A DNA stretch of 64,000 nucleotides, taken from Patescibacteria group bacterium (GTDB lineage Bacteria; Patescibacteriota; Minisyncoccia; Phycocordibacterales; WO2-35-19). Under the pieces are notes generated by a model. That model had not been told where the DNA came from. It did no database searches and worked only from the letters and a program-made list of their open reading frames with translations. Of this stretch, positions 3,394 to 62,719 are shown in pieces; position 1 is the first letter of the stretch, and each line of letters opens with the position of its first letter. The stretch lies in contig JBBUFS010000003.1 of NCBI GenBank assembly GCA_038056395.1, forward strand, positions 4,344 to 68,343. Direction: 5' to 3'. A program made the position numbers and the translations under genes.

Positions 3394-3513
3394 TAACCTC
3401 TCCCCGTCCCTCTCCTTACCTTAAGGAGGGGGTGACTACTATTTATTATTCAGCCGTTGAGTGGAACTTGTTGCGCGGTTCCCTCCTTAAAATAAGGAGG
3501 GTTAGGGAGGTTA
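3394..3513. repeat. Degenerate closed member of the cloverleaf repeat family (outer stem plus two CCCTC..GAGGG hairpins around a 48-nt insert)
   Basis: TAACCTC (3394-3400) pairs with GAGGTTA (3507-3513). Hairpins CCCTCTCCTT/AAGGAGGGGG at 3408-3432 and CCCTCCTTA/TAAGGAGGG at 3481-3501. Confidence 0.6.
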
Positions 3514-4161
3514 GGTTTGAGAAAGTTTCTTACAAAAACTTTTGCGATGGATTTCGGAAAGACCGTGTTTGAGGAGGAGGGAGTAATGGAGCTTTGTACC
3601 ATACCCTTTGTGAATTGGAAACATATAGAGAGGGAATTTCCCGCCCAGGCGGCACATTAGGCGGTCGCGGCGGACTTTGGCGACAATGGAGGCACAGGCA
3701 ATAAAAATATCTTTACTATCGCCTCCAATTATGGTTTTTTGATTTTTAAATTCTTTTGGCGCTTTGAGCAGACCATCCAACTTAATATTAAAAGTATCAA
3801 AGGTGCCCTTTGAGTTTTGTAAAGTGTGTTGTAATTTTTTTAAACATCTTTTTATTCCCAATCCTGTCGCATAAGAAATTCCTTTTTTGTCTATTATCTT
3901 ATTTGAAATGTGGGAGACTTTAAAATTTATTTTTCTTGTCCCGCGAAGCTTTAGCGAAGTGGGATTTTTCCTTAATTTCAAAAATTCTTTATAAATTTCT
4001 TTTCTTCTTTTTGGAGAAAACTGCTTTGAATCTTTTATTTTGCCACCCAGTATTTTTATAAGCTTGCTTCTCAAATTTTGAGGGGCTAGAAATGCCGACA
4101 AAGTTATAGGTCCCGCCAAGGGCCCTCTCCCCGCTTCGTCAATCCCAATTATGTAGATCAT
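3511..4161 (-). CDS. rnhB: Ribonuclease HII
   Basis: 216 aa, MIYIIGIDEAGRGPLAGPI... typical RNase HII N-terminus. Contains two repeat-derived segments (listed separately). Confidence 0.9.
   Translation of the reverse strand: MIYIIGIDEAGRGPLAGPITLSAFLAPQNLRSKLIKILGGKIKDSKQFSPKRRKEIYKEFLKLRKNPTSLKLRGTRKINFKVSHISNKIIDKKGISYATGLGIKRCLKKLQHTLQNSKGTFDTFNIKLDGLLKAPKEFKNQKTIIGGDSKDIFIACASIVAKVRRDRLMCRLGGKFPLYMFPIHKGYGTKLHYSLLLKHGLSEIHRKSFCKKLSQT
3797..3840. repeat. 44-nt segment inside rnhB duplicated at 56597-56640
   Basis: TCAAAGGTGCCCTTTGAGTTTTG is identical at both loci (23 nt); 38 of 44 nt match overall. Confidence 0.8.
3938..3965. repeat. Family B GC-rich repeat inserted in frame in rnhB (encodes PTSLKLRGT)
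   Basis: CCGCGAAGCTTTAGCGAAGTGGGA versus CCGCGAAGCTTCTGCGAAGTGGGA in rplU (59211-59234). Confidence 0.75.
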
Positions 4162-4195: not shown

Positions 4196-4238
4196 GCCCC
4201 CTTCCCCTTAGCAAGGGGAAGGGTTTGGGGATGAGGTC
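4196..4238. repeat. Fragment of the cloverleaf repeat family (central hairpin plus 3' outer-stem-like GGGGATGAGGT)
   Basis: CCCTTCCCCTTagcAAGGGGAAGGG followed by TTTGGGGATGAGGT; compare 42407-42431 and 42467-42482. Confidence 0.65.
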
Positions 4239-9713: not shown

Positions 9714-11809
9714 ATATCAATAGTGGCCAGTTTGGCGTTGGATTGGATGAAGCTTTTGCGGGCGGGGACATCTGTGCCCATAAGGATGTCAAAAATGCGG
9801 TCGGCTTCTTGGGCGTCATCAACATTTATTTGTTTTAGAATTCTTCTTTTTGGATCCATTGTGGTCTCCCAAAGCTCTTCGGCATTCATTTCGCCCAAAC
9901 CTTTGTATCTTTGAACAGACAGCCTAGAGGTTTTAGCTGAGAGCTTAGAGGTTTCATTTTCGGATTCATTTTCTTCTGTTTGCCCAATTTCCTCGTTTTC
10001 AAATCTTTCTTCGCCCGCCGACTTGTCCATCGTAGCTTCAGCGAAGTTGGAAGCTTCGGCGGAGGCGGGGCCTATTATTCTGGCTTTTTCATCATCGCTA
10101 TAGGCATAAAATATTTCCTTTCCTTTCTTTATTTTATAAAGTGGCGGCTGAGCGATGTAAATATAACCTCCGTCAATAATGGGTCTGAAATATCTGTAAA
10201 GCAAAGTCAAAATAAGAGTGCGAATGTGGGCGCCGTCAACATCGGCATCTGTCGCTATTATTACTTTATGATATCTAAGTTTGGAAATATCAAAAGTATC
10301 TCCTATGGCAGTTCCCAAAGCTACAACCAAATTTTTAATTTGTTCAGAACCAAGCATTCTGTCCAGACGCGCTCTTTCTATATTTAAAATTTTGCCGCGC
10401 AAAGGCAATATAGCCTGTGTCCGCCTGTCTCTGCCGGTTTTGGCAGTGCCTCCTGCTGAATCCCCTTCCACAATGAAAAGCTCTGACTCTTCAGCCGATT
10501 TGCTTTGGCAATCAGCCAGTTTGCCCGGCAAAGTCATACCTTCTAAAGCCCCTTTTCTTAAAATTGAGTCCTTGGCGGCTTTAGCTGCCTTTCGTGCCCT
10601 CAAAGCCAAAACTACTTTATTAATTATGGCCCTAGCATCATCCGGATTTTCTTCCAAAAAGGCGTCAAAAGCTTCTCCAAAAACTCCCTCCACCATGCCT
10701 CTGGCCTCCACGCTGCCGAGTTTGGCCTTGGTTTGTCCCTCAAACTGTATTTCCCGAAGCTTAACCGAAATAACAGCGGTTAATCCTTCCAAAACATCAT
10801 CCCCCGTGAAAACATCATCTCCATTTTTGGTAAGATTATTTTTTTTAGCGTAATTGTTCAGAGTTCTGGTTAGAGAAGTTTTGAAACCGGTAATATGAGT
10901 ACCACCTTCACTGGTATAAATATTATTGGCAAAAGGCATAATTCGGGCCGATATGTCATCTACATACTGCAAAGCCACCTCCACTCCCTCAAATTTTTCA
11001 TTTATTTTTTCAACATAAAAAATATTTTTATGGATTGGTTTTTGGTTGTGATTGTAAAATCTAATCAAAGAGATAAGTCCTCCGTCAAAATAAAAAGTCA
11101 TAGACGGGGCTTCCAGCCTTAAGTCTCTCAAATAAAATACTTCATCATCTTTAATTTTCACCTCCCGCAAATCCAAGACAGATATTTTAAGGCCCCTTAC
11201 CAGATAAGCCTGCTGGCGCATATGATGAACAATTCTTTCAAAATCAAAATTTATTCCTTCTTTAAATATTTCAGCATCTGGTTCAAAAGTAATAATAGTG
11301 CCGTGGAGCTTGGAGGGACCAATTCTTTTTACTGCCATCTTTCTCTTTCCTTTTGAATATTCCTGAACATACATCCCTCCGTCTCGATGCACTTCCGCTT
11401 TCATATAAACGGAAAGAGCATTAACTACGGATGCGCCGACACCATGCAATCCTCCAGAAATTTTATAACCCTCTCCCCCGAATTTTCCTCCGGCGTGGAG
11501 AGTTGTCAAAATTGTTTCCAGAGCGGAAACTTTTGTCTGCTTATGAATATCAACCGGAATGCCTCGGCCGTTGTCAGCTACCCTAATGCGATTGCCGGGC
11601 AGGAATGCCACCTCAATATCATTGGCAAAATTACCCATAGCCTCATCACGGGAATTATCAAAAATCTCCACAATTAGGTGGTGCAGGCCGTCCGGTCCGG
11701 TGGTGCCGATATACATTCCCGGCCGACGGCGGACAGGCTCCAAACCCTCCAAAACGGTAATATTTTCAGCGCTATACCCGCCTTTTTTAGTCTTGTTCTC
11801 CTTTGTCAT
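9710..11809 (-). CDS. gyrB: DNA gyrase subunit B
   Basis: 699 aa; GHKL ATPase (LEGLEPVRRRPGMYIG), Toprim (EGDSAGG), C-terminal QRYKGLGEM; acidic insertion near the C-terminus. Confidence 0.95.
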   Translation of the reverse strand: MTKENKTKKGGYSAENITVLEGLEPVRRRPGMYIGTTGPDGLHHLIVEIFDNSRDEAMGNFANDIEVAFLPGNRIRVADNGRGIPVDIHKQTKVSALETILTTLHAGGKFGGEGYKISGGLHGVGASVVNALSVYMKAEVHRDGGMYVQEYSKGKRKMAVKRIGPSKLHGTIITFEPDAEIFKEGINFDFERIVHHMRQQAYLVRGLKISVLDLREVKIKDDEVFYLRDLRLEAPSMTFYFDGGLISLIRFYNHNQKPIHKNIFYVEKINEKFEGVEVALQYVDDISARIMPFANNIYTSEGGTHITGFKTSLTRTLNNYAKKNNLTKNGDDVFTGDDVLEGLTAVISVKLREIQFEGQTKAKLGSVEARGMVEGVFGEAFDAFLEENPDDARAIINKVVLALRARKAAKAAKDSILRKGALEGMTLPGKLADCQSKSAEESELFIVEGDSAGGTAKTGRDRRTQAILPLRGKILNIERARLDRMLGSEQIKNLVVALGTAIGDTFDISKLRYHKVIIATDADVDGAHIRTLILTLLYRYFRPIIDGGYIYIAQPPLYKIKKGKEIFYAYSDDEKARIIGPASAEASNFAEATMDKSAGEERFENEEIGQTEENESENETSKLSAKTSRLSVQRYKGLGEMNAEELWETTMDPKRRILKQINVDDAQEADRIFDILMGTDVPARKSFIQSNAKLATIDI
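10034..10070. repeat. Probable family-B-like repeat within the gyrB C-terminal insertion
   Basis: AGCTTCAGCGAAGTTGGAAGCTTCGGCGGAGGCGG resembles GGAGCTTTCAGCGGAGGCGG (22780-22799) and the family B core. Confidence 0.4.
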
Positions 11810-13026: not shown

Positions 13027-14271
13027 ATGCATATTGTTTCAGAATCCATCACCTATATTTTTCTTTTTATTGCTCTTTATTTGGAAGTGTTCTTTTTGAT
13101 TACTTATTTTGAATTTGGGGATGCTCCCTTCGCTAAAGCTTTGGAGGATCAAAGAAAGAATCCAAAAAAATTGCCCAGCGTTTCTATTATTGTGCCCGTT
13201 TGGAACGAGGAAACTACTGTCCTGAAAACAATTTTTTCTCTACTTAAACTTACTTATCCAAAGGATAAGTTGTCTATTTTCATAGTAGACGATGGTAGCA
13301 CCGACAAAACTTGGAATGTCATCCAAAGATTTGTATGTAACAAACAAATAAAACTTTTAAGAAAAGAAAATGGCGGCAAATATACAGCTCTAAATTATGC
13401 TTTAGAATTCGTGAACACCGAGCTAGTCGGTTGTCTGGACGCTGATTCGTTTGTCCATCCGGAAGCTTTAAAAAGAATTGTCGCTCAATTTGATAATGAA
13501 GAAATAATGGCCGTTACTCCTTCCATAAAAATATTTGAGCCGAAAGGTTTGCTCGGACTTATCCAGAAAGCCGAATATATGTTCGGTATTTTTCTGAGAA
13601 AAGTCTTTTCGGACTTGAATGCCGTTTACATAGCGCCCGGTCCCTTTTCAATTTTCAAAAAATCTGTTTTTGAAAAAATAGGAGGTTACAAGCATTCCTA
13701 CAATACCGAAGATATGGAAATTGCCATGCGAATGCAGAGAAACAACATGAAAATCGGCAATGCCCACAGTGCTTATGTCTATACCGTCGCCCCGGCCGGC
13801 TTGAGAGCTCTCTATAAACAGCGCTTGCGATGGGTTTATGGCTTTATTAAAAATGCCATTGATTATCGGGATATGTTTTTCAAGCCGCAATATGGCAATT
13901 TGGGGATGGTTGTTTTGCCAGCTGCCGGCTTTTCCGTTCTCTCCACCATGTATTTTTTTGGCGCCATGGTTTTAAGCTGGTTTGAAACTTTAACTACTCA
14001 AATAATCAAAATTTATACTGTTGGCATTTCTTTTAACAGTTTTAATTTTGATTTATTTTATGTGAATACCGACATTTTGGTTTTTGTTTCTTTGATTGCG
14101 ATTTTGGGAACGCTTTTGATAATCGTGACTTCCAGGAAGTTGGCGGAAGAAAAAAATAAATTCGGCCTGGACAGCATCCTTTTTTTGGCGCTTTATACCT
14201 TTATTTGCCCTATTTGGATAAGCAAAGCGGTTTACAATGTAGTCTTCTCTAAAAACACAAAATGGAGGTGA
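13027..14271 (+). CDS. Processive family-2 glycosyltransferase (PgaC/NodC/cellulose-synthase-like), integral membrane
   Basis: 414 aa; DDGSTD, DAD, TED and QRLRW (QxxRW) motifs with N- and C-terminal TM segments. Confidence 0.8.
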   Translation: MHIVSESITYIFLFIALYLEVFFLITYFEFGDAPFAKALEDQRKNPKKLPSVSIIVPVWNEETTVLKTIFSLLKLTYPKDKLSIFIVDDGSTDKTWNVIQRFVCNKQIKLLRKENGGKYTALNYALEFVNTELVGCLDADSFVHPEALKRIVAQFDNEEIMAVTPSIKIFEPKGLLGLIQKAEYMFGIFLRKVFSDLNAVYIAPGPFSIFKKSVFEKIGGYKHSYNTEDMEIAMRMQRNNMKIGNAHSAYVYTVAPAGLRALYKQRLRWVYGFIKNAIDYRDMFFKPQYGNLGMVVLPAAGFSVLSTMYFFGAMVLSWFETLTTQIIKIYTVGISFNSFNFDLFYVNTDILVFVSLIAILGTLLIIVTSRKLAEEKNKFGLDSILFLALYTFICPIWISKAVYNVVFSKNTKWR

Positions 14272-25368: not shown

Positions 25369-25384
25369 CTCACTCCACTTTTTC

Positions 25385-25883
25385 GACCCCACCCCGAATG
25401 CCTTACGGCATTCTGCCCCTCACCTTGCGAAGGTGAGGGGAAAAATTAAAACCAAAATAACTTTTAATTTTATCCAAAACTTTTTCAATATCATTTTCAA
25501 CCTCATTATTTTGAAATCTTAAAACTTTATAATCAAGTTCTCTAAAATATTTATCTCTAATCTCATCATATTCTTTGGCTTCTTTTGTGTTATGTATTTC
25601 TCCGTCTAATTCAACTATTAATTTCTTTTGTGGGCAATAAAAATCCAAAATGTAACCTCCTATACTGTGCTGTCTTTTGAATTTATAACCCAGTTTTTCG
25701 TGTCTCAATTCAAACCATAATATTTCTTCTGTTTTTGTTTGATTTTTTCTTAATTCTTTTCTTCTTTCTTTAAGAACCTCATTGTTGTGAATAAGTTTAG
25801 ACATTTTGATTTTTGTTCCCTTCTTATCCCCTCACCTTCGCAAGGTGAGGGGTAGTTCCGCTTTAGCGGAACGGGGTGGGGTC
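25385..25883 (-). mobile_element. Composite palindromic element carrying a DUF559 nuclease gene (cloverleaf repeat split around an ORF)
   Basis: Outer arms GACCCCACCCC (25385-25395) and GGGGTGGGGTC (25873-25883). Hairpins at 25396-25413, 25416-25440, 25828-25852 and 25855-25872. Same module order as the solo element at 42375-42463. Confidence 0.65.
25403..25804 (-). CDS. DUF559 (Vsr/restriction-endonuclease-like) domain protein
   Basis: 133 aa; EEILWFELR...LGYKFKRQHSIGGYILDFYCPQKKLIVELDGEIH typical DUF559. The last about 13 aa (SPHLRKVRGRMP) are encoded by the flanking repeat. Confidence 0.8.
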   Translation of the reverse strand: MSKLIHNNEVLKERRKELRKNQTKTEEILWFELRHEKLGYKFKRQHSIGGYILDFYCPQKKLIVELDGEIHNTKEAKEYDEIRDKYFRELDYKVLRFQNNEVENDIEKVLDKIKSYFGFNFSPHLRKVRGRMP

Positions 25884-25887
25884 GTTC

Positions 25888-29939: not shown

Positions 29940-31004
29940 CTATAAATATTCCCCTATTTTCAAGACATGTTTTATTAAAGTGGCGGTGTAACCCATTTCG
30001 TTGTCATACCAAGCGCAGACTTTTACCAAATTTTTATCTATCACCTTGGTTAAATTAAGGTCGGCAATTGATCCGTAAAGAGAACCAATAATATCGGCAG
30101 AGACAATTGGGTCTTCAGTTATTGTAAAAATGCCTTGCCACCTTGCCTCTCCCGCTGCTTCTTTGAGAATTTTATTTATTTCTTCCACACTGGTTTCCCT
30201 TTTTGAAATAAAAGTAACATCAACGATTGACCCCGCAATTACAGGAACTCGCATAGCCAATCCGTCAAATTTACCTTCTAATTCTGGAATAGCTTTAGTG
30301 ACGGCAATAGCCGCGCCGGTGGTTGTTGGCACGATATTCTGGGCAGCGGCGCGCCCCTCCTTCCAATCTTTTTTGTTTGGTCCATCTACTATGCTTTGAC
30401 TGGTTGTATATCCATGCACCGTGTTAAGCACCGCTTTTTCAATGCCTATTTTTTCATTTAAAATCTGAATAAGCGGCGCGCCGGCATTGGTGGTGCAAGA
30501 AGCATTTGAACTTATAATGCTTTTTTCTAATTTTTCATCATTTATACCCATCAAAACCATAACTTGAGTTTCGTCTATCGGTTCGTCTTTGACTGGCGCG
30601 GTTATAAGCACCCTTTTAGCTCCAGCATCAATATGAGCTTTAGCTTTTTCAAAAGAATTAAAGGCGCCCGTTGATTCAATAACCACATCTATTTCCAAAT
30701 CTTTCCACGGCAACTCTTTTGGTTCTTTTAAGCTAAAAAATTTAACTTCCATCGCCTCGCCGGAGCTTTGAGCGAAGGCGGGTTTTCCAATTATCAGCGC
30801 GTCTTTGTTTGCTTTCACAGAAACAGGAAATTGCGCAGCTCCATAGGCTGTATCATACTTTAAAAGATAGGCAATATTTTCTATATCACCCAAATCGTTT
30901 ATAGCCACCAGTTCTATTTCTGGCGTATTTTGCGAGAGTCTTATAAACGCTCTTCCAATCCTCCCCGCGCCATTCACGGCGACTTTAATTTTTTTATCCT
31001 GCAT
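29940..31004 (-). CDS. gap: Glyceraldehyde-3-phosphate dehydrogenase, type I
   Basis: [19 protein letters not shown], 354 aa. Confidence 0.93.
30753..30783. repeat. Family B repeat inserted in frame in gap (encodes [11 protein letters not shown])
   Basis: CGCCGGAGCTTTGAGCGAAGGCGG; compare CCGCGAAGCTTTAGCGAAGTGGG in rnhB. Confidence 0.6.
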
Positions 31005-35731: not shown

Positions 35732-35746
35732 TTATATGGGTCTTTT

Positions 35747-35792
35747 TAATTGAATGCATTCATCGCCTTGTCTCGTCCGTCAGTAATGGGTT
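35747..35792. repeat. Diverged duplicate of the pth 3' end
   Basis: TTAATTgaatgcATTCATCGCctTGTCTCGTCCGTCaGTaATG versus 36952-36996 TTAATTaaacatATTCATCGCtcTGTCTCGTCCGTCgGTgATG (about 38 of 46 nt identical). Confidence 0.75.
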
Positions 35793-35816
35793 CCCCTGAT
35801 GGGCACCATCAAGGGG
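35793..35816. repeat. REP-like hairpin flanking the RAYT gene (left)
   Basis: CCCCTGATGGgcaCCATCAAGGGG; contains the RAYT stop codon. Confidence 0.75.
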
Positions 35817-36489
35817 ATTCAAACTCGGCATATTCAAGTTCGAGTTCAGAATGTTTTTTCTGCTGAATATTTTCAAAAGAATCTTCTACCATCTTCTTAT
35901 AACTACTGGGATCTTTAAGTTGATCTAAAATAATTTTGTTTTTACAAATTTTTTCAGAATTAATACTTAAATATTCTACATAACTACTCCACCGCCAACT
36001 AATGTCTTTTTTTATCAAGTTAGCAATTCTTGGATTTAAATGAATATAAGCAGAGAGCCACAATAAATATTCATTACTATCTATAAGTACAGATTTAAAT
36101 TGGTCCTGAAATAAAGAACCGACTCGATTGTATTTTAGATTGAAGTATTTTGAATAACTACTACACACTTTTAAAATAAGTCTGCTTACAGAAACATCGC
36201 TATTTTGTTTGATTAAAATATGAAAATGATTTGGCATCAAACAGTAGGTAATAAGCGAAAAAGATCCAGGTGGAAGCATTTTTCTGATGTATGGTGTGTG
36301 ACTTTTTCCTCGATAGACCTTATTTTTTAATTTGGAAACTTTCTTATTTGGAAATAAATTTTCTTTTAATCGATTAAAGAAAACATTAAAATCTTGTTCA
36401 TCTTTAAATATAGCCATCTTATCAACTCCACGATTATAGATATGGTAATAACAACCTGGTGCAAAATTCTTATAATCTCTGGTACCCAT
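35809..36489 (-). CDS. REP-associated tyrosine transposase (RAYT, IS200/Y1 HUH family)
   Basis: YHIYNRG..., HUH motif MPNHFHILIKQ, C-terminal RWSSYVEY Tyr motif. ATG 36489 is preferred (TATAAT 7 nt upstream); alternative ATG at 36498. Confidence 0.85.
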   Translation of the reverse strand: MGTRDYKNFAPGCYYHIYNRGVDKMAIFKDEQDFNVFFNRLKENLFPNKKVSKLKNKVYRGKSHTPYIRKMLPPGSFSLITYCLMPNHFHILIKQNSDVSVSRLILKVCSSYSKYFNLKYNRVGSLFQDQFKSVLIDSNEYLLWLSAYIHLNPRIANLIKKDISWRWSSYVEYLSINSEKICKNKIILDQLKDPSSYKKMVEDSFENIQQKKHSELELEYAEFESP

Positions 36490-36505
36490 GAAAAACATTA
36501 TAACT

Positions 36506-36530
36506 CCCCTTGATGGTGCCCATCAAGGGG
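36506..36530. repeat. REP-like hairpin flanking the RAYT gene (right, inverted copy)
   Basis: CCCCTTGATGGtgcCCATCAAGGGG; reverse complement of the left copy except for one extra A. Confidence 0.75.
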
Positions 36531-36585
36531 ATCTGTGGAAAACAAAAAGTGCCAAGGACGCGCCTTGACACTTGATTGCCCAAAG

Positions 36586-36900
36586 TCAGACATTGGGCAA
36601 TGTTTGCTCTTCCATAATTGCTTTGTATTGAGCATTAAGAGATCTCATAAATATTTTCAAAAATCTTTTGTCAGACAAACTCTCGAGTGAGAGCATGACT
36701 TTTCTAAGATCTCCGAGATAATCATCTATCTCGGGATGCTCTGATGAATCATTGGAAGCCAAAAGGGTCTGCCTCACAAATTCTTCGACCACCTTTTGAA
36801 TACTCGTTACTTTTTTGACAGAATGGAGTTTCAATTTCGTGTGTAAATCTCGATCAAGAAAAATGCTTACTTTTACCTTTTCCACCCTCGTTTTCTCCAT
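36586..36900 (-). CDS. Ribbon-helix-helix (CopG/Arc-like) domain protein
   Basis: KVKVSIFLDRDLHTKLKLHSVKKVTSIQKVVEEFVRQTL. ATG 36900 with GAGGAGA 7 nt upstream. Confidence 0.5.
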   Translation of the reverse strand: MEKTRVEKVKVSIFLDRDLHTKLKLHSVKKVTSIQKVVEEFVRQTLLASNDSSEHPEIDDYLGDLRKVMLSLESLSDKRFLKIFMRSLNAQYKAIMEEQTLPNV

Positions 36901-36951
36901 GTACAAATCTCCTCTATTTGCAGACTACTCTTTTTAAATAAATAATCAACT

Positions 36952-37554
36952 TTAATTAAACATATTCATCGCTCTGTCTCGTCCGTCGGTGATGAGAGTC
37001 TGGATGGCTTCGCTTACTTTTTTAAAGATTTTTTTTATAATTTCCAGTTCAGCCGGTTTGAATTTATTCAATATAAAATCAATGACCGCTTTCTCGCCTT
37101 GAGGTTTTTTAATTTTTCCGCTCGGAGTTGCGGATGAAATGCCAATTCTTATTCTGACAAATTCTTTTGTCTTGACTGCTTTAACGACTGAGTCCAATCC
37201 CCTATGCCCACCCGTACCTTTATTGTAAGAAATTTTTAATGTTCCCAAAGGCAAATCAATATCGTCATGCACCACAATCAAATTTTCCAGACCTTTTTTA
37301 GAAGTTTTTAATTTTGGCTTAACAAAATAAGAAACGGCTTGCCCTGATTTATTCATAAATGTCTCCGGCAAAATTAAAGTGGCTGGTTCTTTTCCTATTT
37401 TTGATTTTGAAATTTGAGATTTGGATTTTTTATCAAATTCCCATTCCGGAAAATTTAAATCTTTATATAATTTCATAACCGCCTCCCTTCCGGTATTGTG
37501 GCGAGTATTTAAATATTCCTCTCCTGGATTGCCCAAACCTATGATGTAAAACAT
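36952..37554 (-). CDS. pth: Peptidyl-tRNA hydrolase
   Basis: MFYIIGLGNPGEEYLNTRHNTG..., 200 aa. Confidence 0.92.
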   Translation of the reverse strand: MFYIIGLGNPGEEYLNTRHNTGREAVMKLYKDLNFPEWEFDKKSKSQISKSKIGKEPATLILPETFMNKSGQAVSYFVKPKLKTSKKGLENLIVVHDDIDLPLGTLKISYNKGTGGHRGLDSVVKAVKTKEFVRIRIGISSATPSGKIKKPQGEKAVIDFILNKFKPAELEIIKKIFKKVSEAIQTLITDGRDRAMNMFN

Positions 37555-42357: not shown

Positions 42358-42374
42358 CAACTTTTTTGTTTTTC

Positions 42375-42463
42375 CTACCTCACCCCGTTCCGCTAAAGCG
42401 GAACTGCCCCTCCCCTTTGCAAGGGGAGGGGCAATCCGACGCAAGTCGGATGGGGTGAGGTAG
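42375..42463. repeat. Solo cloverleaf (four-way-junction) GC-rich repeat
   Basis: 12-bp outer stem CTACCTCACCCC/GGGGTGAGGTAG encloses three hairpins: GTTCCGCtaaaGCGGAAC, CCCCTCCCCTTtgcAAGGGGAGGGG and ATCCGACgcaaGTCGGAT. Confidence 0.8.
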
Positions 42464-42505
42464 TAAGGGTTGGGGATGAGGTAGTAATATGATACAATAA
42501 ATTTT

Positions 42506-43444: not shown

Positions 43445-43503
43445 TATATTAGACGCTGGTTTGTCCCGCCGTAACTTTAGCGAAGGAGGAGCGTTTAGTA
43501 TAG
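43445..43503 (+). repeat. Hairpin repeat (copy 1) with a family-B-like insert in its loop; likely trxB terminator
   Basis: TATATTAGACGCT ... AGCGTTTAGTATA pair with two G-U wobbles on the plus strand only. Loop carries GTCCCGCCGTAACTTTAGCGAAGGAGGA. Confidence 0.6.
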
Positions 43504-43530
43504 AATTTTTAAATTTTTGTTGCATTATTT

Positions 43531-44046
43531 TCATTTTGCCGGAGTGCCAAACATTTGAACCACAAAGACGGCTTGACGGCCTTTATAGATGCCGGTGGAA
43601 GTGGCAATGCCTATTTCGGTATATTTTGGATTCATAATATTTAAAAAGTGGCCGCGAGAATTCATCCAAGCAGTTTCTATGTCTTCACTGTTTTCAAAAT
43701 TGACGGCCAAATTTTCTCCGGCATAAACATATTTGTAGCCGGCTTGATCAAGCCAATACCAAGGATTTTTGCCATCTGGAGTATTGTGAGCAAAATAACT
43801 CTTGGCCGCCATATCATCGGCTTTCATCTGAGCCGCTTTTTCAAGAAACGGATTTACTTTTAATTCTGAAATATTCGCGGCCGCCCTGTTTTGGTTTGTC
43901 AGAGCAACCAGCACGCTCGCATAAATCGCCGAGAGTGAATCAATAACCCCGATTCGCAAACCAGGCACAATTCCAATTAAAACAACCAAAATCACCAAAC
44001 AAATAATAGCGATTTTTAATTTCATAATTTCTTTAATCCCCTTCAT
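43531..44046 (-). CDS. Membrane-anchored CAP/SCP/PR-1-like domain protein
   Basis: 171 aa; YFAHNTPDGKNPW...GENLA...GHFLNIM. Confidence 0.75.
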   Translation of the reverse strand: MKGIKEIMKLKIAIICLVILVVLIGIVPGLRIGVIDSLSAIYASVLVALTNQNRAAANISELKVNPFLEKAAQMKADDMAAKSYFAHNTPDGKNPWYWLDQAGYKYVYAGENLAVNFENSEDIETAWMNSRGHFLNIMNPKYTEIGIATSTGIYKGRQAVFVVQMFGTPAK

Positions 44047-48396: not shown

Positions 48397-48424
48397 TATA
48401 TTAGACGCTCAGCGTTTAGTATAG
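48397..48424 (+). repeat. Hairpin repeat (copy 2, without loop insert)
   Basis: TATATTAGACGCTcAGCGTTTAGTATAG; same arms as 43445-43503. Confidence 0.6.
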
Positions 48425-48497
48425 TATTTTTATAAAAATATTGTTTAATTTTATTTAATAAATTGATGTTAGGGAAAAAATTTGATAAATTTATAAG

Positions 48498-48571
48498 GCG
48501 CGGTTAGCTCAGTTGGTTAGAGCGCGTCTTTGACGTAGACGAGGCCGTGAGTTCAAATCTCTCACCGCGCA
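48498..48571 (+). tRNA. tRNA-Val (anticodon GAC)
   Basis: GCGCGGT TA GCTCAGTTGGTTAGAGC G CGTCTTTGACGTAGACG AGGCC GTGAGTTCAAATCTCTC ACCGCGC A; folded manually, one T-T mismatch in the T stem. Confidence 0.88.
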
Positions 48572-48572
48572 C

Positions 48573-55157: not shown

Positions 55158-56534
55158 ATGCCAGAAATAAAATCGCATATAAGAATTCCGCCGCATAATT
55201 TGGAGGCCGAGAAAGCGCTACTTGGTTCGGTGATGCTGAGGCCGGAAGTGATGTTTGAAATTACGGACTTGGCGCACGCGGTTTCTTTTTATTCAGAAAA
55301 GCATCGTCTTATTTTTGAGACAATGTTGGATCTTTTTTCAAAAAGAAGTCCGACAGATTTATTATCTGTTTCTGCAAGATTGAAGGAAAAAAATTTGCTA
55401 GACGAAATAGGCGGCAACAGTTATTTGGGCGAGCTGGTCAATTCGGTGCCCTCGGCAGCCAATGCAAATTATTACGCCCAGATAATTCAAAAAAAACATA
55501 TCGCCAGAAATTTGATTGGCGCCGGGGATTTTGTGTCTTCTTTGGGGTATGACGAAGCCGAAGAATTGGAAAATCTCTTGGATCAAGCCCAAAAGAAAAT
55601 TTATGATGTGACAAACATTTCAAGCATACATAAATTTGTAGAACTTAAAGAAGAATTAACGGAGGCATGGGAAAGACTTGATCGATTGCATAATTCAGGA
55701 GACGGCTTACGAGGTGTGCCAACCGGTTTTAAAGAGCTTGACGAAAAACTTTCCGGTTTGCAAAAATCTGATTTGATAATTTTAGCGGCGCGACCTTCCG
55801 TTGGTAAAACTGCTCTGGCTCTTGATATTGCTCGCCAGACAGCCGTTTATCACAATACTCCGGTTGGCATTTTTTCATTGGAAATGAGTTCCCAGCAATT
55901 AGTTGATAGAATGCTTGCTTCCCAATCAAATGTTGACGCCTGGAAATTGCGTACAGGAAAATTGATCAGAGAAGACGATTTTTCAGCTATTCGCCAATCC
56001 TTGGATGTCCTTTCCAAAGCGCCCATTTTTATAGACGATCAGCCGGGCAACAATATTTTGAAAATGCGCTCAGTGGCCAGACGGCTCAAAAATGAAAAAG
56101 GGTTGGGACTGATTATTGTAGATTATCTGCAGTTGATGGCCACTAATAAAAATTATGATTCTATGGTCAATCAAGTAACCGAAATTTCCCGCTCTTTAAA
56201 AAATTTGGCACGCGAACTTGAAGTGCCTGTCATGGCCCTTTCCCAGCTTTCCCGCGCCATTGAACAGAGAGGTGGCAAGCCAAAGCTCTCCGACCTGCGC
56301 GACTCCGGTTCCATTGAACAGGATGCCGATGTTGTTATGTTTATACACCGCGAAGATAAACAAAAAAATACAAACGAAGCCGAAAAAACAAACATAGCCG
56401 AAATTTTGATTGAAAAGCATCGCAACGGCGCCACCGGCCGTGTTGAACTTTTCTTTAACGAAAAAAAGGCCTCATTCCTGCCCCTTGAAAAAGCCCAATT
56501 CACCGGCGCCGAAAGCGAGTTTAGAGAGTTTTAA
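55158..56534 (+). CDS. dnaB: Replicative DNA helicase DnaB
   Basis: PPHNLEAEKALLGSV, Walker A ARPSVGKT, SQLSRAIEQR. Confidence 0.95.
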   Translation: MPEIKSHIRIPPHNLEAEKALLGSVMLRPEVMFEITDLAHAVSFYSEKHRLIFETMLDLFSKRSPTDLLSVSARLKEKNLLDEIGGNSYLGELVNSVPSAANANYYAQIIQKKHIARNLIGAGDFVSSLGYDEAEELENLLDQAQKKIYDVTNISSIHKFVELKEELTEAWERLDRLHNSGDGLRGVPTGFKELDEKLSGLQKSDLIILAARPSVGKTALALDIARQTAVYHNTPVGIFSLEMSSQQLVDRMLASQSNVDAWKLRTGKLIREDDFSAIRQSLDVLSKAPIFIDDQPGNNILKMRSVARRLKNEKGLGLIIVDYLQLMATNKNYDSMVNQVTEISRSLKNLARELEVPVMALSQLSRAIEQRGGKPKLSDLRDSGSIEQDADVVMFIHREDKQKNTNEAEKTNIAEILIEKHRNGATGRVELFFNEKKASFLPLEKAQFTGAESEFREF

Positions 56535-56535
56535 C

Positions 56536-56593
56536 GACCCCACCCCGTTCTGCTAAAGCAGAACTGCCCCTCACCTTGCGAAGATGAGGGTGG
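56536..56593. repeat. 5' half of a cloverleaf-family element (outer arm plus two hairpins, no closing arm)
   Basis: GACCCCACCCC GTTCTGCtaaaGCAGAAC tg CCCCTCACCTTgcgAAGATGAGGG. Confidence 0.7.
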
Positions 56594-56596
56594 AAG

Positions 56597-56640
56597 TCAA
56601 AGGTGCCCTTTGAGTTTTGAGACGTATGGTGTAATTTTTT
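56597..56640. repeat. Copy of the 44-nt rnhB-internal segment
   Basis: TCAAAGGTGCCCTTTGAGTTTTG...GTAATTTTTT; see 3797-3840. Confidence 0.8.
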
Positions 56641-57558: not shown

Positions 57559-58221
57559 ATGAATTCTATAGAAAAACTGATTCAAATATTTTCCAATTTT
57601 CCAGGCATTGGGCCGAGACAGGCCAGGAGATTTGTTTATTATTTATTGACCAGAGCAAACAGAACTTTGAGTGAATTGGCAGAAAATATAAAAGATTTAA
57701 AAGATGATGTGGTTATATGCGAAGATTGCCACAGATTTTTTGAATTACAACATAAAAATCACAACAACAATGACGGCCATTGTAAGTGTAAAATTTGTTC
57801 TGATCAAAACAGGGATCATTCAACACTGATGGTAGTGCAAAGAGATGTGGATTTGGAATCTGTAGAAAAAAACGGGGGATTCAACGGTATTTATTTTGTG
57901 CTTGGCGGTTCGGTGCCGATATTGGAAAAAGAGCCGGAAAAAAGGATAAGGGTTAAAGAGCTAAAGGCGTTTTTGGAAAAGAAACTAAACCCGCCTTCGC
58001 AAAATGCTTCGGCGCGGCTAAGGGAAATTATTTTAGGAATGAACTGGAATCCAGAAGGAGAAAATACTGGTGACTATGTGGTAAAAATGTTAAACACCGA
58101 GTGTTCAACATTAATTAAAAAAGTAAAAATATCACATTTAGGGAAAGGTCTTTCTATGGGTTCTGAACTAGAGTATACTGATCCTGATACATTAAAAAAT
58201 GCGTTAAGAAATAGGTCATGA
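57559..58221 (+). CDS. recR: Recombination protein RecR
   Basis: FPGIGPRQARRFVYYLL (HhH), Cys4 zinc finger, Toprim; TGA stop. Confidence 0.88.
   Translation: MNSIEKLIQIFSNFPGIGPRQARRFVYYLLTRANRTLSELAENIKDLKDDVVICEDCHRFFELQHKNHNNNDGHCKCKICSDQNRDHSTLMVVQRDVDLESVEKNGGFNGIYFVLGGSVPILEKEPEKRIRVKELKAFLEKKLNPPSQNASARLREIILGMNWNPEGENTGDYVVKMLNTECSTLIKKVKISHLGKGLSMGSELEYTDPDTLKNALRNRS
57990..58018. repeat. Probable family-F-like repeat in frame in recR (encodes PPSQNASARL)
   Basis: CCCGCCTTCGCaaaatGCTTCGGCGCGG shares CGCCTTCGC with 51364-51372 and 63724-63733. Confidence 0.4.
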
Positions 58222-58820
58222 CAATTCAAAAATCATATCCTTATATTTTGATAATCGGCAGCATCATTGGCCTTGCGGCTTCTTTTCTGCTGACTTTGGA
58301 CACTATTAAACTTATTCAAAATCCAGTTGCTGACATACCATGCAACATCAATCCTTTCATAAGCTGTGGCAATGCCGCTATTTCCTGGCAGGGACATGTT
58401 TTCGGATTTCCAAATTCCATCTTGGGGTTGGTGGCTTTTTCCATGCTTTTAGCGGTCGGAGTAATGCTTTTCTCAGGCGGCCGCGCCAAAAAACCGCTTT
58501 GGCTTTTGGCCAATCTCGGGCTATTGACGGCGGTTGCTTTTGTCATCTGGTTTATTTATGAAAGTTTGTATTCACTGGGCTCTCTTTGCGTCTATTGCAT
58601 GATTATCTGGGCAGTCATTTGGCCGCTTTTTCTTTATACCACCGTTTGGAATTTCAAAGAGGAACATTTTATTTTGTCTTCATTAAAAACAAAAACCCAA
58701 AATAAAATTGATATGATTATGAATTTTATCTCTCGCAATTACATTCAAATCCTAATAATCTGGTATCTTATCATTCTTCTTCTCATTCTTTTTCAGTTCA
58801 AAGATTTCTTTTTTAATTAA
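58218..58820 (+). CDS. Vitamin K epoxide reductase (VKOR) family membrane protein
   Basis: CNINPFISCG and LCVYCMIIW cysteine pairs, multiple TM helices. Confidence 0.8.
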   Translation: MTIQKSYPYILIIGSIIGLAASFLLTLDTIKLIQNPVADIPCNINPFISCGNAAISWQGHVFGFPNSILGLVAFSMLLAVGVMLFSGGRAKKPLWLLANLGLLTAVAFVIWFIYESLYSLGSLCVYCMIIWAVIWPLFLYTTVWNFKEEHFILSSLKTKTQNKIDMIMNFISRNYIQILIIWYLIILLLILFQFKDFFFN

Positions 58821-59260
58821 GAAATTTTATCTATCTTCACTTTAAAATATGGCTGGCGGTGGCCGTTCTTTTTAAAATAACGGCTTTTTTGCTTGTATTT
58901 GATAACTATGACTTTGGCATTGCGGCCGATTTCAACCAAAGTTCCGGAAACTTTCGCTCCATCTAGGTAAGGAGCGCCGATATCGGTGGCATCAGCGCCA
59001 TTATCAACCAAAAGAACTTTATCAAAAACTACCGTATCCCCCTCCTTTGGCTCGACGGAGCCTTTGGCGGAGTCGGCTTTCAATTTCTCTATTTTTATTG
59101 TATCTCCCACAGCCACTCTGTACTGCTTGCCCCCGGTCTCAATAACGGCAAAAGCGCCATTATTTACAGGTTCAGTTTTGGCTACCTTTTTTGATTCTTT
59201 TTTGCCCGCTCCGCGAAGCTTCTGCGAAGTGGGAATTTCTCTTATTTCTGCCATAACCAT
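58817..59260 (-). CDS. rplU: 50S ribosomal protein L21 with N-terminal extension
   Basis: FAVIETGGKQYRVAVGDTIKIEKL core. About 45-aa extension containing repeat-encoded IPTSQKLRGAG. Confidence 0.88.
   Translation of the reverse strand: MVMAEIREIPTSQKLRGAGKKESKKVAKTEPVNNGAFAVIETGGKQYRVAVGDTIKIEKLKADSAKGSVEPKEGDTVVFDKVLLVDNGADATDIGAPYLDGAKVSGTLVEIGRNAKVIVIKYKQKSRYFKKNGHRQPYFKVKIDKIS
59204..59235. repeat. Family B repeat in frame in the rplU N-terminal extension
   Basis: CCGCGAAGCTTCTGCGAAGTGGGA; 22 of 24 nt identical to rnhB 3941-3964. Confidence 0.75.
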
Positions 59261-61945: not shown

Positions 61946-62719
61946 TTATTTTATTGAATCTTCTATTTTGTAATTGCCTACTCGCGTACGGCGGATGGAA
62001 AGGGTAGTAGCACCACAGCCGAGAGTGTTGCCCATATCGTTTACTAGCCCTCTAATATAAGTACCAGATGATACATAGGCGCTGAATTTACCGATAAAAT
62101 ACCCCACCCCTCGCTTCGCGTGGCCCTCCCCTTGGTCAGGAGAGGGAAAACCAAAAAGCACCTGTTTCCACAAAGTTAAAATTTCGTGCTGTCTGAAATC
62201 ACCTGTTACTTTTGAGATATCCATTAAAAGTCTACTGAAAAGTTCTTTGCTGTTTAATAAATCTAATCCATGAAATTGAATTTTGTGGATAGTGATATTT
62301 TTAATGGGAACATCCTCAGAATCTTTTTTCTTCCGAGACTTTCTAGAAGCAATCATCTTTGATGAATAAAATGGATATTCCTGTTCTCTTTCGCCTTCAT
62401 AAATCATTGTAACTCTTCTGACATCACTCTCCAAAAGTTCATGCAATTTTTCCACTCGCATTATTTTTCCTAAAATATCATACGAATCAGTGGCAAAGCC
62501 GAAAATGGAAACAAAATCGTATTCTTTATCAAGCCCCAAAAATTCTTCTTTCCTTTTTACATCTTCGCCACTCGCCATAAGCAAGACTCCTTCGGCTAAC
62601 GGGTCAAGCCGCCCCATATAAGTCATTTTTTGCCCTTTCAATTCAGGCGTGGCTTTGGCAAACCTTTGGATACACTCAAGCGGTGTCTCTCCGCGATTTT
62701 TATAGAGATTGTATATCAT
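61946..62719 (-). CDS. truB: tRNA pseudouridine-55 synthase TruB
   Basis: MGRLDPLAEGVLLMA catalytic Asp motif; 257 aa. Confidence 0.88.
   Translation of the reverse strand: MIYNLYKNRGETPLECIQRFAKATPELKGQKMTYMGRLDPLAEGVLLMASGEDVKRKEEFLGLDKEYDFVSIFGFATDSYDILGKIMRVEKLHELLESDVRRVTMIYEGEREQEYPFYSSKMIASRKSRKKKDSEDVPIKNITIHKIQFHGLDLLNSKELFSRLLMDISKVTGDFRQHEILTLWKQVLFGFPSPDQGEGHAKRGVGYFIGKFSAYVSSGTYIRGLVNDMGNTLGCGATTLSIRRTRVGNYKIEDSIK
62102..62147. repeat. Cloverleaf-family fragment in frame in truB (encodes PSPDQGEGHAKRGVG)
   Basis: CCCCACCCC tcgcttcgcgtgg CCCTCCCCttggtcaGGAGAGGG; outer-arm motif plus CCCTC hairpin. Confidence 0.65.

Follow-up and report, generated by a model that had tools for sequence, protein, structure and literature searches.

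Two unrelated genes of a Patescibacteria group bacterium, rnhB (RNase HII) and rplU (ribosomal protein L21), carry a short, almost identical segment of DNA that is read in the same frame in both. The 64,000-nt stretch analysed here, called the window (assembly GCA_038056395.1, contig JBBUFS010000003.1, positions 4,344 to 68,343), has its closest protein homologues near Candidatus Zambryskibacteria, within the Candidate Phyla Radiation (CPR). The question raised by this locus is whether such a segment is a peptide kept for its function or a piece of DNA that happens to be translated. We consider it about 75% probable that both segments are copies of a dispersed 30-nt hairpin repeat with a CAAG/CTTG tag, here called family B, which resembles repetitive extragenic palindromic (REP) sequences and Rickettsia palindromic elements (RPE) and is tolerated at permissive protein sites. 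The two copies and their hosts are as follows.

3511..4161, minus strand: rnhB (RNase HII) host gene, 216 aa, Pfam RNase_HII PF01351 over residues 5-211 (E=1e-28)
3935..3964, minus strand: family B unit in rnhB, read as TCCCACTTCGCTAAAGCTTCGCGGGACAAG, profile E=1.5e-11, stem intact
58817..59260, minus strand: rplU (ribosomal protein L21) host gene, 147 aa, Pfam L21 PF00829 only from residue 37
59153..59260, minus strand: Lys-rich N-terminal extension of L21, residues 1-36, carrying the insert; length and content vary among relatives; predicted to be disordered
59204..59234, minus strand: family B unit in rplU, read as TCCCACTTCGCAGAAGCTTCGCGGAGCGGGC, profile E=7.7e-8

A sequence-only reading had pointed to 24-mers of rnhB and rplU that are 22/24 identical, and their positions and sequences are as it gave them: on the plus strand, 3941-3964 reads CCGCGAAGCTTTAGCGAAGTGGGA and 59211-59234 reads CCGCGAAGCTTCTGCGAAGTGGGA. 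Dinucleotide-preserving shuffles gave a match in 0/100 cases. Both 24-mers lie inside minus-strand open reading frames (ORFs) in a common frame, and the proposed translations, NPTSLKLRGTR and IPTSQKLRGAG, are correct. The length of 24 nt had to be revised, as sharp boundaries define a unit of 30 nt. This unit is a GC-rich imperfect palindrome, [C/T]CCCACTTCGC-TAAA-GCTTCGCGGG[G/A]-CAAG, also written [C/T]CCCACTTCGC-TA-AAGCTTCGCGGG[G/A]CAAG; beyond positions -2..+27 the information content is at background, which gives sharp unit ends and unrelated flanks. In rnhB the unit encodes PTSLKLRGT(R), residues 67-76, a net gain of 27 nt relative to empty orthologues. In rplU it encodes PTSQKLRGAG, residues 10-19, a clean gain of 30 nt. 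The rplU unit has an AGAA loop variant and a right stem arm decayed to GCGGAG, which fits a relic on which selection acts at the protein level alone.

The predicted fold comprises a 6-bp outer stem, a 3x3 TTC/TTC internal loop, a 2-bp GC clamp and a TAAA tetraloop, with the CAAG tail unpaired on one side only of the hairpin. Direct counts over 118 ungapped copies show that the two outermost stem pairs covary (pair -2/+23 is C:G in 78 and T:A in 34; pair -1/+22 is C:G in 106 and A:T in 7). As RNA, the CTTG-first strand is the steadier one (-12.8 kcal/mol, z=-2.3, versus -7.5 for the opposite strand), because a G.U pair stands where the other strand has an A.C mismatch. The GCGAAG direct duplication that had been described does exist, but an imperfect palindrome with a CAAG tail describes the unit better. 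The d(GCGAAGC) mini-hairpin on the plus strand, very stable as DNA, was considered as the key feature; it is probably incidental, since it is absent from a second family of the same architecture (family 2, below). A strict architecture pattern (stem-N3-GC-N4-GC-N3-stem') matched the rnhB copy alone in the window and is too strict for a census, because the rplU stem has decayed. A GC-island scan of the window was not selective at ~40% GC, and Rfam at gathering thresholds, applied to the window and five element-bearing loci, returned tRNA, tmRNA and rRNA only, with no match for the element.

Orthologue alignments of both proteins revealed presence and absence of the segment with clean empty sites. 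At the RNase HII site, 103 of 121 sequences are empty (…LKLRKN-GK-VFF…), 7 have a block of the PTSLKLRG(T/A)(R/S) type and 11 have other short inserts. Carriers are scattered: the nearest relatives (79-84% identical) of the window copy and of the carriers P0167 and P0182 lack the insert, and the carriers are mutually 60-76% identical. Between carriers the insert is identical at 23-27 of 27 nt, with 6-9 of 9 third codon positions kept, whereas the rest of rnhB is 63-72% identical and its third positions 47-54%. The insert, third positions included, is thus far better kept than its host gene, and it is therefore conserved as DNA and not as peptide. Protein-level conservation in relatives that lack the nucleotide motif was also looked for, as a pattern that would speak against a repeat, and the opposite was found.

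L21 tells the same story at a different site. Across 120 homologues its N-terminal tail is variable and Lys-rich. Some insert-free tails read MAEIREIKKESK..., and others have, at the same spot, a 10-residue block (PTSQKLRGAG, PNSRKLRGAG or PTSPRLRGAS) or the differing STSAKAT(A/V)DK. In DNA, the empty locus L008 has GAAATC followed directly by AAAAAAGAATCA, and the filled locus L009 has GAAATC, then CCCACTTCGCAAAAGCTTCGCGGGGCGGGC, then AAAAAA, exactly 30 nt gained with no duplication beyond a 1-nt ambiguity. The sequence-only reading was right to place the L21 copy in an N-terminal extension; the extension as such is the normal variable Lys-rich tail of the clade, and only the 10-residue block is repeat. 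On the start of this gene, we observed that MAEIREIK is kept across many L21 orthologues, which argues for the longer rplU ORF, and that an upstream Shine-Dalgarno-like AAGGA lies ~16 nt from the first rplU ATG. The NCBI record of a 99%-identical L21 (P0006, 108 aa) begins downstream and omits the entire N-terminal extension.

Structure models place both inserts in permissive surroundings. In an AlphaFold2 model of RNase HII (45-sequence alignment, mean predicted local distance difference test score, pLDDT, of 80) the insert falls between helix 50-64 and strand 79-85, and pLDDT drops below 50 nowhere but at residues 67-73. An alignment with T. maritima RNase HII (PDB 3O3F) shows a gap at the insert. 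In the AlphaFold model of L21, residues 1-36 form no secondary structure, and residues 1-29 have pLDDT values below 50. According to these models, both inserts occupy loop or tail sites of a kind where 10 extra residues would be tolerated.

The same rnhB gene contains other short repeats. A second loop, between ..LKK and IRLDG, is hypervariable and gathers recurring short peptides such as VNTKRSASN and INLTPNPSPKSRRGE. A repeat of ~44 nt with its own palindrome, TCAAAGG-TGC-CCTTTGA, is found at 3797-3840 in rnhB and at 56597-56640 between genes (89% identical); in rnhB it encodes KKLQHTLQNSKGTFD, a peptide that recurs in orthologues P0125 and P0150.

A genome-wide census of the motif had been proposed, and in a species-genome collection it identified a dispersed repeat. 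The exact core CCACTTCGCNNAAGCTTCGCGG occurs in at least 119 stretches of one-genome-per-species contigs where ~1 is expected (our own estimate, for 20 specified bases in 596 Gb). The exact-core matches listed come from 92 assemblies or loci and are nearly all CPR, from Parcubacteria, Microgenomates, Saccharibacteria and Berkelbacteria lineages. Record titles among them include Zambryski-, Staskawicz-, Nomura- and Vogelbacteria, Paceibacterota, Saccharibacteria and Berkelbacteria and, within Microgenomates, Levy-, Woese-, Shapiro-, Davies-, Beckwith- and Gottesmanbacteria. A minority of third-party metagenome-assembled genomes (MAGs) among the matches bear Gammaproteobacteria, Pseudomonadales or Clostridia labels, which are unverified. 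The density is ~20 extra copies per 0.93 Mb, or ~1 per 45 kb, and one MAG has 9 exact-core copies at most among the matches listed. The 30-nt unit thus recurs in more than 100 unrelated contexts, in several frames and both orientations. Together with the clean empty sites and the DNA-level conservation, this bears out the proposal that a nucleotide repeat of dispersed occurrence is translated in frame in these two unrelated genes. Literature on CPR with palindromic, repeat, in-frame and extension themes yielded no prior description of the element.

Copies within genes are translated. Of 121 copies, 90 lie inside spanning ORFs of at least 100 aa and 74 still do so after start-codon trimming (61-74%); the trimmed set has 47 sense and 27 antisense copies, and 39% of copies fall outside such ORFs. 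The 90 intragenic copies are read as PTSLKLRG (34), REALAKW (20), HFAKASRG (17), AKLQRSG-type peptides (10), PRSFSEVG (8) and one other. The shared frame of the window pair is thus not special, being the commonest one. In two of the six frames the TAAA loop would introduce a stop; it is found in 0/11 copies there versus 55/79 in open frames (Fisher p=1e-5), and it is this avoidance that shows translation. The 20 longest host ORFs were tested, and every one is a conserved housekeeping gene; among them are class I tRNA synthetases, AlaRS, UvrA, a UvrD/AddA-type helicase-nuclease, topoisomerase I (twice), RecG (twice), ribonucleotide reductase, an RNase R/II-type enzyme, BipA, TGT, an ATP synthase subunit, a Mur ligase and trigger factor. 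In the two TopA genes the units have opposite orientations and lie ~15 aligned residues from each other, a clean gain of 9 residues is seen in one RecG, and at locus L032 one unit is nested within the loop of another. Copies outside ORFs have no consistent placement relative to gene ends.

An ungapped profile built from 118 copies found two strong matches in the window, two marginal partial ones (13128-13141 and 10034-10047) and, at E=0.3, the third copy that had been proposed at 43463-43490. Two of the weaker places are described here.

43460..43490, plus strand, CTTG-first orientation: probable degenerate intergenic family B relative, TTTGTCCCGCCGTAACTTTAGCGAAGGAGGA, ungapped profile E=0.3
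13124..13154 (profile match 13128-13141), plus strand: marginal or degenerate family B relative inside ORF 13027-14271, CTCCCTTCGCTAAAGCTTTGGAGGATCAAAG, read ..FAKALEDQ.., E=0.005

With one gap, ~25/30 positions of the intergenic copy align, the TTG tag included, and the two-block pattern GTCCCGC-N4-7-TTTAGCGAAG occurs in only two places in the window, this one among them. The third copy is thus probably a relative of family B, but a degenerate one. A sequence of ~42 nt (AGCGTTTAGTATAG.ATTTTTA…) lies beside it at 43490-43531 and again at 48411-48452; the latter stretch is ~45 nt upstream of tRNA-Val (48498-48572), and the shared sequence may be a promoter-like element.

The reading that we favor, of a dispersed hairpin repeat tolerated within proteins, takes its boundaries, its fold, its gain or loss at orthologous sites in both orientations and its translation from the comparisons above; the following steps are those we infer. 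The element would be copied into new sites as DNA, and copies would survive purifying selection in surface loops or disordered tails, where they add ~10 residues. A length of 30 nt and an open reading in four of the six frames would let copies survive inside genes, at permissive sites. The PTS-KLRG peptide would then be a by-product of the most tolerated frame and not a functional motif, and the hairpin may decay after insertion, as in the rplU copy or the P0123 variant. By analogy with tagged REPs, a trans-acting enzyme of the HUH type, similar to the REP-associated tyrosine transposases (RAYT) and acting on single-stranded hairpins, is the leading candidate for copying, with gene conversion or hairpin-mediated recombination as alternatives.

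Several observations weigh against it. Copies differ at 3.1 positions per 30 nt within a genome and at 3.8 between genomes, with no sign of a recent burst. Selfish REPs are normally lineage-specific; a core that stays nearly identical over CPR lineages of great depth is unusual for them and could indicate a conserved function instead. Viral contigs were searched with 0 matches, giving no evidence of a phage vector. Neither a target-site duplication nor a conserved target sequence was detected in the empty and filled L21 sites or in the information content of the flanks. The element has no transposase linked to it; the RAYT-like genes of the window and of four element-bearing loci lie 2.8-4.8 kb from family B copies and are flanked by genome-specific hairpins, none of them family B. 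In the case of RNase HII, a single ancient insertion that was then precisely lost many times could also produce the observed pattern. Finally, five copies abut tRNA or tmRNA 3' ends where 0.2 are expected (maximum 3 in 1000 random placements), an enrichment that hints at a function or a targeting rule beyond the favored explanation.

These five copies deserve a closer description. At L031, L052 and L071 element and RNA share one and the same CCA, and a right arm changed to GCGGTG pairs with discriminator-CCA. At L050 the unit begins directly after the discriminator, and L019 is arranged likewise, its loop containing a nested second hairpin. L065 is also listed among family B copies at tRNA/tmRNA 3' ends, and at L071 another, degenerate copy lies upstream of the same tRNA-Ile, at a distance of 40 nt. 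The tRNA-adjacent copies are oriented such that the RNA fold is the poorer one (A.C mismatch), and the element is absent from the window's own three tRNAs. The association could reflect a trailer-hairpin function, a targeting rule or the origin of the family.

The hairpin might accordingly be, in the first place, a functional nucleic-acid element of CPR, such as a tRNA/tmRNA 3' trailer or a protein-binding site, with intragenic copies as spill-over or exaptations. This is compatible with mobility, and we regard it as possible although unlikely. It would account for the excess at RNA ends, where in four copies the element CCA is, or directly follows, the RNA 3' end with the right arm pairing, for a stem that covaries while loop, internal-loop and tail bases stay invariant over phylum-level lineages, and for the good RNA fold of the CTTG-first strand. 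However, tRNA ends hold ~4% of the copies, and most copies are in ORFs and in both orientations, which is unneeded or intolerable for an RNA signal. No U-tract follows the hairpin, non-ORF copies are inconsistently placed and no Rfam family matches; the worse-folding orientation of the tRNA-adjacent copies and the element-free tRNAs of the window do not fit either. It is improbable that the rnhB and rplU segments are ancient vertical insertions, held constant by selection or gene conversion and precisely lost many times with no ongoing mobility. Slippage tends to delete hairpins precisely, further short inserts at the RNase HII site resemble decayed relatives with a CAAG tail (P0123: CCCCTCGACTAAGCTCAGGGCAAG), and the lack of a recent within-genome burst would be consistent with this scenario. 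But carriers are interspersed with closer non-carriers, so that precise loss would have had to happen independently many times, and for hosts of 71% identity to share 27/27 nt, strong nucleotide-level selection on a coding loop would be needed. In addition, more than 100 unrelated genes and spacers contain the unit, one gene family has it in opposite orientations, and one copy is nested within another.

A short functional peptide, a binding or cleavage site gained convergently as PTS-KLRG, is a very improbable origin. The peptide is basic and hydrophilic, and its frame is used in both window genes and is the commonest overall (34/90), but four other frames or orientations give unrelated peptides (HFAKASRG, REALAKW, PRSFSEVG, AKLQRSG) and 39% of copies are outside start-trimmed ORFs. 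Synonymous positions are conserved, most orthologues do without the segment, and it is located in low-confidence loops or tails. Taken together, these observations effectively refute this origin. Nothing was found in favor of chance similarity or an assembly or sequencing artefact, which has a negligible probability given 0/100 shuffles and an element that recurs in frame, with a restricted taxonomic range, in hundreds of independent assemblies from different studies. A dispersed hairpin repeat that is copied as DNA and tolerated in proteins thus remains the preferred explanation.

Candidate copying machinery is present in the window, and was first met by a rough tblastn with approximate Y1-transposase queries, a weak screen.

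35745-35788 and 36951-36994: 44-nt direct repeats bounding a 1.16-kb RAYT block (35789-36950)
35792-35816 and 36506-36530: hairpins flanking the RAYT-like gene, inverted copies of a 27-nt GC hairpin, TCCCCTTGATGGTGCCCATCA(A)GGGGA
35809-36498, minus strand: RAYT-like HUH tyrosine-transposase homologue, 229 aa, NCBIfam NF047646 REP_Tyr_transpos (E=8e-12, 45 bits)
36586-36906, minus strand: small ORF beside the RAYT-like gene, 106 aa

The score of 45 bits is below the NCBIfam cutoff of 80 bits, and Pfam gave no match for the RAYT-like proteins. The second direct repeat is the 3' end of a 200-aa ORF (36952-37554), which we take to be a putative pth, and the block looks like a REPtron-like insertion with a duplicated target. 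RAYT-like homologues also occur at four element-bearing loci (L103, L074, L037 and L126), each with its own flanking hairpins, and 4 of the 5 genes have paired hairpins or inverted repeats at their flanks, a REPtron-like arrangement. A link between RAYT and family B is not supported by these gene flanks. Judged from sequence, the window genome appears to have machinery of the REPtron type, whose tie to family B is only a candidate one.

Family B has a relative. Family 2 (CCACCTCCGCTAAAGCTACGGTGG) occurs in at least 120 metagenome stretches and in several frames, and it occupies nearly the same L21 site in other lineages. The alternative L21 block, seen at locus L007, is also a 30-nt hairpin, TCCACCTCCGCTAAAGCTACGGTGGACAAG, whose insertion point lies 3 nt further on. 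Intermediates between the families, such as TTCCACCTTCGCTAAAGCTTCGGTGGACAAG at L073, have compensatory stem substitutions with core and tail unchanged. Family B and family 2 thus form a superfamily in which centre and tail are conserved while the stems covary. Family 2 was also seen in GC-rich soil contigs (L129-L248), where a further hairpin (TCCGCCGTAGCCTTGGCGAAGGCGGA) directly follows, and the superfamily may extend beyond AT-rich CPR genomes as composite multi-hairpin repeats.

Other GC-rich hairpin repeats were noted in the window, mostly between genes (4199-4223, 25377-25440, 25828-25886, 42368-42466, 56528-56591 and 62123-62147). They include CCCCTCACCTTGCGAAGGTGAGGGG with GNRA-type loops and compound units of ~63 nt with CCGCTAAAGCGG, and several share a GCTAAAGC loop with family B. 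The stretches 30738-30785 and 57987-58034, in two coding regions (…CGCCTCGCCGGAGCTTTGAGCGAAGGCGGG…), have an inverted similarity of 75% over 48 nt in a layout that resembles family B, and may be another in-frame hairpin family.

Repeat origin would explain puzzling short insertions and extensions in CPR RNase HII, L21, aminoacyl-tRNA synthetases, UvrA, TopA and RecG with no functional innovation. This bears on annotation, on alignments and phylogenies of CPR marker proteins and on how peculiarities of CPR ribosomes are read. It also implies that streamlined genomes of ~1 Mb carry dispersed hairpin repeats too. A bolder proposal, which we put forward tentatively and consider rather unlikely, is that family B and its relatives are an undescribed class of minimal 30-nt mobile hairpins that remodel essential proteins across the CPR, and that their invariant 5' CCA, together with their exact placement at tRNA/tmRNA 3' ends, reflects the copying mechanism. 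Copying might then include a tRNA-3'-end or CCA-dependent step, RNA-mediated or primed, or an HUH enzyme acting on a CTTG-tagged single-stranded DNA hairpin, and the tRNA-trailer copies would be source or master copies. With 30 nt, a conserved tag and a tRNA-end association, the element offers a compact system for asking how elements without an obvious transposase move.

Among known kinds of short element, several do not match family B. A MITE (miniature inverted-repeat transposable element) has terminal inverted repeats, a target-site duplication and a length of ~100-400 bp, whereas the L21 gain is of 30 nt without duplication and the flanks are uninformative. An intrinsic terminator is not supported, as no conserved T-run follows the unit, most copies are intragenic and the non-ORF copies are inconsistently placed. 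DNA uptake sequences (DUS/USS) are lineage-specific 9-12-mers at ~1 per kb, whereas this unit is structured, 30 nt long and found at ~1 per 45 kb.

Tagged REPs are much closer. They are palindromes of 20-40 bp with an unpaired 4-nt tag (GTAG or CGTC) at one end, and they occur inside genes, notably those for replication, repair and tRNA synthetases (Di Nocera et al. 2013, PMC3733652). Like family B, they are GC-rich and imperfect with a one-sided tag, some copies in ORFs encode ~10 residues, often in replication, repair, tRNA-synthetase or helicase genes, and different REPs are found at about the same site in orthologues; the CGTC REPs likewise have no identified transposase (PMC3733652). The Rickettsia elements RPE-4 and RPE-6 are treated alongside tagged and intragenic REPs in the same work (PMC3733652). 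Family B differs in its tag, CAAG/CTTG instead of GTAG or CGTC, in being mostly intragenic (61-74%) and of low copy number (~20 per Mb and not hundreds per genome), and in a core that is nearly identical across phylum-level CPR lineages and not species-specific. It is also enriched at tRNA 3' ends, with CCA in common. Inverted dimers (REPINs) were absent from 139 profile matches, which included one tandem and one nested pair only. The window does resemble REPtron/RAYT systems in having a RAYT-like HUH gene between inverted GC hairpins, but this hairpin, TCCCCTTGATGGTGCCCATCAAGGGGA, is not family B, and unlike in REP/RAYT pairs no RAYT gene of the window or the four loci has family B at its flanks.

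RPE-1 is reportedly a selfish palindrome that lies in frame in essential Rickettsia genes and is translated at surface-exposed sites. It is ~100-150 bp long (30-50 residues) and restricted to Rickettsia. Family B is similar to such elements in being in frame, translated, present or absent among orthologues and hosted by a reduced genome. It is set apart by its length of 30 nt and its CPR hosts. The GC cluster of the yeast mitochondrial var1 gene is likewise a short GC-rich hairpin tolerated in a protein gene. Mitochondrial genomes of Nematomorpha contain coding palindromes (PMC6649704). These mitochondrial elements share with family B the short GC-rich hairpin read in frame in an AT-rich compact genome, although they are organellar, have other sequences and are often longer or perfect palindromes. 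Although it fails several features that define REPs, family B is best read as a REP/RPE-like miniature repeat.

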